Shown here piece by piece: positions 42,459 to 42,817 of a stretch of DNA of 64,000 nt (positions are counted from its first letter, which is position 1; each line of letters begins with the position of its first letter). The notes beneath the pieces were generated by a model. It searched no databases, had not been told where the DNA came from, and saw nothing but the letters and a program-made list of their open reading frames with translations. Location: assembly GCF_044647545.1 (NCBI RefSeq), contig NZ_CP172818.1, one strand, 5' to 3'. The stretch is from Escherichia coli. GTDB lineage: Bacteria > Pseudomonadota > Gammaproteobacteria > Enterobacterales > Enterobacteriaceae. The translations under genes and the position numbers were made by a program.

Positions 42459-42498
42459 GTCCTCTTAGTTAAATGGATATAACGAGCCCCTCCTAAGG
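42459..42498 (+). tRNA. argW: Truncated tRNA-Arg(CCU), 5' 40 nt only (acceptor stem, D-arm, anticodon stem 5' half and loop)
   Basis: gtcctcttagttaaatggatataacgagcccctcctaagg matches the 5' part of argW; the following sequence cannot form the anticodon-stem 3' strand or T-arm; a TATACT -10 element sits just upstream. Confidence 0.7.
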
Positions 42499-42508
42499 CT
42501 ATTGTCGA

Positions 42509-42817
42509 TTAAGGAGGGTATGGGGGATTACCAAAGGCAGCCCCTTTAAGCTCCGCAAGACGTTCTGACCAGTCATGCGCCAGCGCGTTGTCTTCCGCCG
42601 TGTAATACGCAGCACATTTGGCGTTATCACCGTCAGTGAACAGATCCAGAACAAACGGGCCAAACAGGGTGTTAATTCCCCAGAAAATGTTGTCCGGCGT
42701 GCGCCACTGATCACCCACTTCCTTCAGTTCATGGGCTGGTTTGTTCCGCAGTTCCACCAACTCCTGGCAATATTTATTACTCATTAAGCCCCCACGTAAT
42801 TCCCTGACAGATACCAC
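42509..42817 (-). pseudogene. Phage DNA N6-adenine methyltransferase-like fragment (yfdM-like)
   Basis: 102-aa ORF ending ...GNPPYPP* right after the NPPY motif and abutting the truncated tRNA. Confidence 0.5.

Follow-up and report, generated by a model that had tools for sequence, protein, structure and literature searches.

The imperfect inverted repeat at the junction between a broken tRNA gene, argW, and a CPS-53-like prophage remnant in the 64,000-nt Escherichia coli stretch analyzed here (hereafter "the window") is best explained as an incidental 7-bp complementarity without a role, lying in junction bases that are probably low-confidence or chimeric; we put the probability of this reading at about 60%. 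Under this reading, the left arm would be the ordinary argW anticodon arm, the right arm would combine AGGA, present only at the junction, with the GGG of a K-12-type yfdM end, and the 17-19 nt that separate the clean argW and yfdM homologies would be degraded copies of both neighbors, i.e., argW nucleotides 41-60 followed by the TTA....GGGTA of the yfdM stop region. This degradation is most likely not biological, and the repeat says nothing reliable on how the argW/prophage junction formed.

Composition of the inverted repeat

The junction stretch of the window reads ...gagcCCCTCCTaaggctattgtcgattaAGGAGGGtatggggg.... All parts of the imperfect inverted repeat reported in a preliminary description are present, i.e., ccctcctaagg at 42488-42498, the 10 nt ctattgtcga, and ttaaggaggg at 42509-42518, and the same description correctly saw a tRNA fragment joined to a shortened prophage. 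A repeat search of 42420-42580 returned a single inverted repeat, CCCTCCT/AGGAGGG, of 7 nt with 100% complementarity and a 17-nt spacer; by eye, T42509-T42510 can additionally pair with A42495-A42496 beyond an A/A mismatch or A bulge. The junction comprises the following features:

42459-42498, plus strand: first 40 nt of argW (tRNA-Arg CCU), native in every base; covers the acceptor 5' strand through the second base after the anticodon loop
42488-42494, unstranded: left arm CCCTCCT; argW anticodon stem 5' strand and loop start, including the anticodon bases CCT
42499-42510, plus strand: CTATTGTCGATT; argW nt 41-60 (GCTAATTGCAGGTTCGATTC) minus G, A, and CAGGT (three deletions)
42511-42515, plus strand: AAGGA; no parent; AGGA stands in place of CCAC of the K-12-type yfdM end and is part of AAGGAGG
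42512-42518, unstranded: right arm AGGAGGG; four window-only bases (AGGA) plus GGG of yfdM'
42509-42784, minus strand: yfdM', 91-aa N-terminal part of a phage Dam methyltransferase; last residues ...NPPYPP, stop TAA at 42509-42511

A chance resemblance to the anticodon stem had been suggested for the repeat, and this fits the left arm: its bases fall in the anticodon arm when native argW is folded, and it occurs as the native argW anticodon stem and loop in 5,425 of 5,426 complete E. coli genomes. For the right arm, a parental prophage that already carried the exact motif would have made it incidental, and here the comparison is split. The window has TTAAGGAGGG where K-12-type CPS-53 has TTACCACGGG, so that 6 of the 10 bases (TTA and GGG) pre-exist, while AGGA is absent from that parent. 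Read on the minus strand, the TTA flanking the arm is the stop codon of yfdM' and is also found in the K-12-type element, and GGG already ends the K-12-type yfdM fragment, leaving AGGA as the only window-specific part. Full-length Dam has GGCGCGGCTG in place of TTAAGGAGGG; in a three-way comparison at this position, K-12 and BS-04 CPS-53 read TTACCACGGGTA(C/T)GGGGGATTACC, the window TTAAGGAGGGTATGGGGGATTACC, and full-length Dam genes GCGCGGCTGTATGGGGGATTACC. Prophage (Dam/yfdM) homology begins at 42516 (K-12 type) or 42518 (full-length Dam), and left of 42516 no match was found in 5,426 complete E. coli genomes.

Overall, the inverted repeat is no better than chance. Across the whole window, perfect 7-bp inverted repeats with a spacer of 3-20 nt number 165 and fall at 92 loci, spanning 3.9% of window positions; with several junctions in the window, its occurrence at one of them is unsurprising. 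Checked for stability, the DNA hairpin proved weak (-5.3 kcal/mol, z = -1.3), its energy being equaled by 20 of 200 shuffles. The proposal that this palindromic microhomology marks a recombination event therefore finds no footing in a chance-level repeat with a weak hairpin at a join that is not clean, and the arms, being inverted, are unusable as direct-repeat microhomology for a deletion. Two observations run counter to the incidental reading. The four bases that differ from K-12 type (CCAC>AGGA) complete the stem, for which the chance is about 1/256 and which hints at templating, and as RNA the 37-nt hairpin is reasonably stable (plus strand, -14.4 kcal/mol, z = -2.2), with z = -0.9 in its 72-nt RNA context.

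Bases between argW and yfdM'

Ungapped identity with native argW stops at 42498, and BLAST prolongs the match to 42504 via two 1-nt gaps. Beyond the strict match, all 12 nt of 42499-42510 form an in-order subsequence of the native argW 20-mer, which 0.14% of random 12-mers do, the 12-nt length having been picked post hoc. An affine-gap local alignment of this filler to the argW 3' half was marginal (418/5000 shuffles); the anchored subsequence test is the stronger of the two. The argW sequence thus appears to fade out rather than break cleanly, and the filler does not look foreign. We rejected an origin by copying from elsewhere: the filler occurs only once in the window, even when 3 mismatches are allowed, and has no exact match in viral, genome, and metagenome collections. 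Neither the K-12 yfdL end nor full-length Dam left of the break showed significant similarity to it. What is left of argW is not detectable as a tRNA gene, as ARAGORN returned 0 genes in the window and Rfam no tRNA even at E<=10.

The junction as a whole was found in this window only. None of 5,437 matching records covered 80% of an argW-yfdM join query (5,426 complete E. coli genomes), and complete E. coli genomes never place argW within about 1 kb of yfdM. Searches for the filler and junction strings found them in none of the complete E. coli genomes, IMG/VR, species-representative genomes, or JGI metagenomes, and the YfdM' protein ending NPPYPP, in two start variants, was not found in an index of 153 billion gene positions.

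A CPS-53-like remnant truncated at both ends

The argW locus has the mlaA-yfdC-argW ... dsdC-dsdX-dsdA order of E. coli, and between argW and dsdC lies a 3.8-kb CPS-53/KplE1-like remnant, yfdM' to yfdT', truncated at both ends. To the right of yfdM', its features are:

42784-43278, minus strand: yfdN, PerC family
43778-43945, unstranded: yfdO'/yfdP internal junction; indel-rich, degraded K-12 CPS-53 TGACGG-repeat spacer
43946-46335, plus strand: yfdP, yfdQ (DUF2303), yfdR (5'-deoxynucleotidase-like), yfdS (DUF551), and a yfdT' fragment
46336-46341, unstranded: right junction zone; loss of TG at 46336 and T>C at 46339, just ahead of the join
46342-46357, plus strand: att core CTGCAGGGGACACCAT (argW 3' end, attR); sole remaining KplE1/CPS-53 16-nt copy

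Pfam matches above cut-off were obtained for Dam, PerC, DUF2303, and DUF551, with YfbR-like falling just under (25.2 vs 25.9 bits); the Dam match (PF05869) of yfdM' covers profile positions 3-69 of 169. Positions 7620-11474 of K-12 CPS-53 (L001 coordinates) align to window 42516-46333 at 94.7% identity, and the CPS-53 of strain BS-04 is collinear from the yfdM breakpoint to yfdT at 95.3%. The yfdM' breakpoint is that of K-12 yfdM (where the protein ends ...NPPYPW stop). As a separate observation, the K-12 yfdL|yfdM junction (L001 7590-7640) cuts Dam where the window does, to the nucleotide, and is flanked there by a tandem GGGGG(T/A)TACCA pair that loosely resembles the att core (5 edits, not significant). 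A collinear yfdM-yfdS block with K-12 internal breakpoints at argW/dsdC is what is expected of KplE1/CPS-53, whereas intS by attL and torI by attR, equally part of that element, are missing. Specifically, L001 1850-7619 (intS to yfdL) and 11475-12084 (yfdT end, ypdJ, torI) have no counterpart in the window. Compared with K-12 CPS-53, the remnant has lost the left core, the argW 3' half, intS, yfdGHI (glucosylation), tfaS/yfdK/yfdL (tail-fibre), the yfdT end, ypdJ, and torI.

KplE1 is bordered by a duplicated 16-nt core, CTGCAGGGGACACCAT, and attL, intS, and torI have been described as its excision machinery (PMC2951348). In the window, no second copy of the core was found, either exact or with <=2 edits, i.e., the left one is absent; the right end of the remnant has also lost the attR arm sites, along with torI. 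Judging from its sequence, the remnant holds its chromosomal position and the right core without recombination machinery. At the right join, the parental ...ATCGCTG meets the att core CTGCAGG, with CTG (3 nt) common to both. We also considered a secondary att site for IntS in Dam and rejected it: the NPPY-coding GTATGGGGGATTACCA differs from the core CTGCAGGGGACACCA by 5 edits, a resemblance that is not significant because 612 window sites are equally close.

Over 42518-43777, the remnant matches an intact lambdoid prophage of ST648-type strains at 100% identity, and 43946-46335 equals the same prophage save for the loss of 1 nt at 46242 and an A>G change at 46277; the deletion at 46242 frameshifts the yfdT-like gene. 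This intact prophage resides at another locus, not argW, and the exact YfdQ protein was found only in intact prophages at another locus. Between the two segments, and bordered on both sides by sequence 100% identical to the intact prophage, the 43778-43945 junction occurs in no other genome: the closest natural sequence matches 54% of the segment at 84%, and an exact 29-mer from it was not found in genome and viral collections. Gene conversion by a resident intact prophage was rejected as the cause of the 100% identity, since the identity reaches to 0-4 nt from the breakpoints, where flanking homology is absent. Descent from CPS-53 would leave divergence, and independent deletions would not repeat the K-12 endpoints. 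Identity of 100% to the ST648-type prophage right up to K-12 CPS-53 breakpoints is a combination that neither simple descent nor gene conversion yields.

Departures from an ST648-type backbone

The backbone of the window is ST648-type. Compared with strain WP4-S18-ESBL-09, in which argW is intact and the site empty, 46342-60329 is 100.000% identical (13,988 bp, 0 differences), 59843-64000 is 100% identical, and 1-25421 is 99.97% identical. The larger departures from this relative are each unique and most are indel-rich. Besides the prophage remnant, they include:

25447-27677: yfcO-yfcR fimbrial genes; K-12/HS-like allele, frameshifted by about 10 indels; closest natural match 98.8%
32293-32421: intergenic patch between a fimbrial gene and sixA; 22.5% GC; 11 bases deleted (10 sites), 11 inserted, 2 substitutions
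about 39500-39530 (about 39524): repeat-mediated deletion; about 190 nt lost between internal repeats, with an A-run filler at the join

As a result of the indels, the yfcO-yfcR ORFs are fragmented, and an exact-protein look-up of the frameshifted YfcQ gave no match. The intergenic patch has a best match of 90% among 5,426 genomes. The deletion at about 39524 hits a gene for a 415-aa hypothetical protein (WP_022645936.1 in the relative), and the A run at its join brings in a stop, the ORF left being 39516-40223. Smaller observations include three scattered differences from the ST648-type relative within a 25-kb block that is otherwise identical, i.e., a 6-nt deletion at 20153 (REP-like, after yfcL), T>G at 21745, and a 1-nt deletion by an A run at 21765 that would frameshift yfcA; an ST648 insertion carrying a hypothetical gene and an AAA-ATPase gene by smrB is missing from the window.

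The two unmatched stretches at the remnant also share a motif. Of the four AAGGAGG heptamers in the window, two lie in 187 nt of window-only sequence (42499-42517 and 43778-43945), for which we obtained a probability of ~5e-5 as a post-hoc estimate. Both, at 42511-42517 and 43894-43900, arise by substitution relative to K-12 (CCAC>AGGA and ATGCCG>AGGAGG, respectively).

Since the departures from the ST648-type relative are unique and mostly indel-rich, the bases at the junction probably represent chimeric or low-confidence sequence that arose in a consensus, an assembly, or some other computational source, an interpretation drawn only from the pattern of differences. The bases of the repeat lie in one of these window-only stretches, and arguments from scars should therefore await read-level confirmation. 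More generally, single-base or fine-scale scar arguments are unsafe anywhere in the window before such confirmation.

Alternative origins of the junction and repeat

A possible, if less favored, alternative is that the junction is a real, strain-private deletion in a K-12-type CPS-53, produced by illegitimate recombination or alternative end joining, in which case the repeat would still be incidental. The sequence from the argW variable/T-arm region to the yfdL end would have been removed, a second deletion would have taken yfdT'-torI and immobilized the remnant, and the filler and nearby lesions would stem from error-prone repair; natural end-joining junctions can indeed have filler and nearby lesions. 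The collinearity of the remnant with K-12 and BS-04 CPS-53 from the yfdM breakpoint to yfdT fits this history, as does a plausible 3-nt CTG microhomology at the right junction. Loss of attL, intS, and torI makes sense as a means of fixing a remnant in place, and loss of argW should be tolerable because tRNA-Arg(UCU) also reads AGG. However, the left deletion would have to end, on its right side, 0-7 nt from the older yfdL|yfdM junction, for which an endpoint placed at random in 5.8 kb has a probability of about 0.1%, and the three small deletions within 20 nt of argW call for additional events between flanks that do not diverge from relatives at all. The remnant segments, moreover, match the intact ST648-type prophage found elsewhere at 100% rather than a diverged CPS-53 lineage, the ST648-type genome examined has an empty argW site, the approximation of argW and yfdM is seen in no complete genome, and the junction is in no other public sequence. 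If the junction is nonetheless genuine, it records a single step, private to this strain, in the decay of a well-known cryptic prophage, and the repeat adds nothing to that record.

Two further explanations would give the repeat itself a part. One, which we consider improbable, takes the junction as real and attributes the right arm to an intramolecular template switch (snap-back synthesis or quasipalindrome correction, CCACGGG>AGGAGGG): once argW adjoined the yfdM' end, its GGG would pair with the CCC of the anticodon arm and the complement would be copied at equal length. AGGAGGG is the reverse complement of CCCTCCT, TTAAGGAGGG and TTACCACGGG have the same length, and all four changed bases complement TCCT of the left arm, the 1/256 coincidence given above. 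Yet the nucleating complementarity is only 3 bp, and known quasipalindrome hotspots use longer stems; the A/A mismatch stays, whereas a true copy of CCCTCCTAA would give TTAGGAGGG; a parental state with argW beside TTACCACGGG was found in no complete E. coli genome, species-representative genome, or metagenome; AAGGAGG arose de novo at 43894 as well, with no complementary arm to explain it; and the repeat overall is at chance level. Were a template switch true, it would be a natural quasipalindrome correction at a new prophage-deletion junction, in a remnant without integrase and excisionase. The other explanation, which we regard as highly improbable, is that the hairpin or AAGGAGG is functional, as a terminator or 3' stabilizer (yfdN-yfdM'), a truncated-tRNA processing signal, or a ribosome-binding site. 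The stability of the plus-strand RNA stem, joined by a minus-strand stem of -12 kcal/mol, speaks for it, as do the perfect Shine-Dalgarno core AAGGAGG and the position of the yfdM' stop codon at the right-arm edge. Against it, no T/U run follows the stem on either strand, and a terminator scan of 42300-42900 found a site at 42831 only, with none at the repeat. A ribosome-binding site would have its core 5-9 nt upstream of a real ORF, but AAGGAGG ends at 42517, 2 nt before the ATG at 42520, and the ORF starting there has 9 codons (MGDYQRQPL-stop). As the sequence is unique to the window, no conservation backs a function.

A chimeric tRNA-like RNA spanning 42459-42530 was likewise considered and discarded (z = -0.9, rejected by ARAGORN and Rfam). 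Its 72-nt fold pairs GUCCUCU with GGGGGAU of yfdM' as a pseudo-acceptor stem, and its ...UUACCA tail mimics a tRNA 3' end.

Comparison with known systems

Set beside known systems, the window most resembles K-12 CPS-53/KplE1 (IntS, TorI), with which it shares the yfdC-argW ... dsdC site, the right core, the gene order yfdM'-yfdN-yfdO'-yfdP-yfdQ-yfdR-yfdS-yfdT, the Dam breakpoint, and the internal deletion; it differs in being only about 95% identical to K-12 and in its unique junction sequences. As at a prophage attL in a tRNA gene, argW reads towards the prophage and native identity ends inside the tRNA, but a true attL restores a complete tRNA with core and arm sites, whereas here no tRNA is detectable and the core and integrase gene are absent. 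Quasipalindrome mutations of E. coli offer a partial parallel, in that a tract by an imperfect repeat differs from its presumed parent in palindrome-improving bases; unlike those, the window has a prior stem of 3 bp, a mismatch left in place, a hypothetical parent, and chance-level statistics. A microhomology-mediated deletion does not describe the left junction, where 17-19 nt without a clean match to either parent lie between them and the repeat is inverted, the CTG overlap being confined to the right. Finally, as in illegitimate-recombination filler junctions, the window has a short unmatched stretch between parents and a right join that shares CTG; in contrast to such junctions, its filler appears to be a gapped copy of the adjacent parents, and its arms are inverted rather than deletion microhomology.
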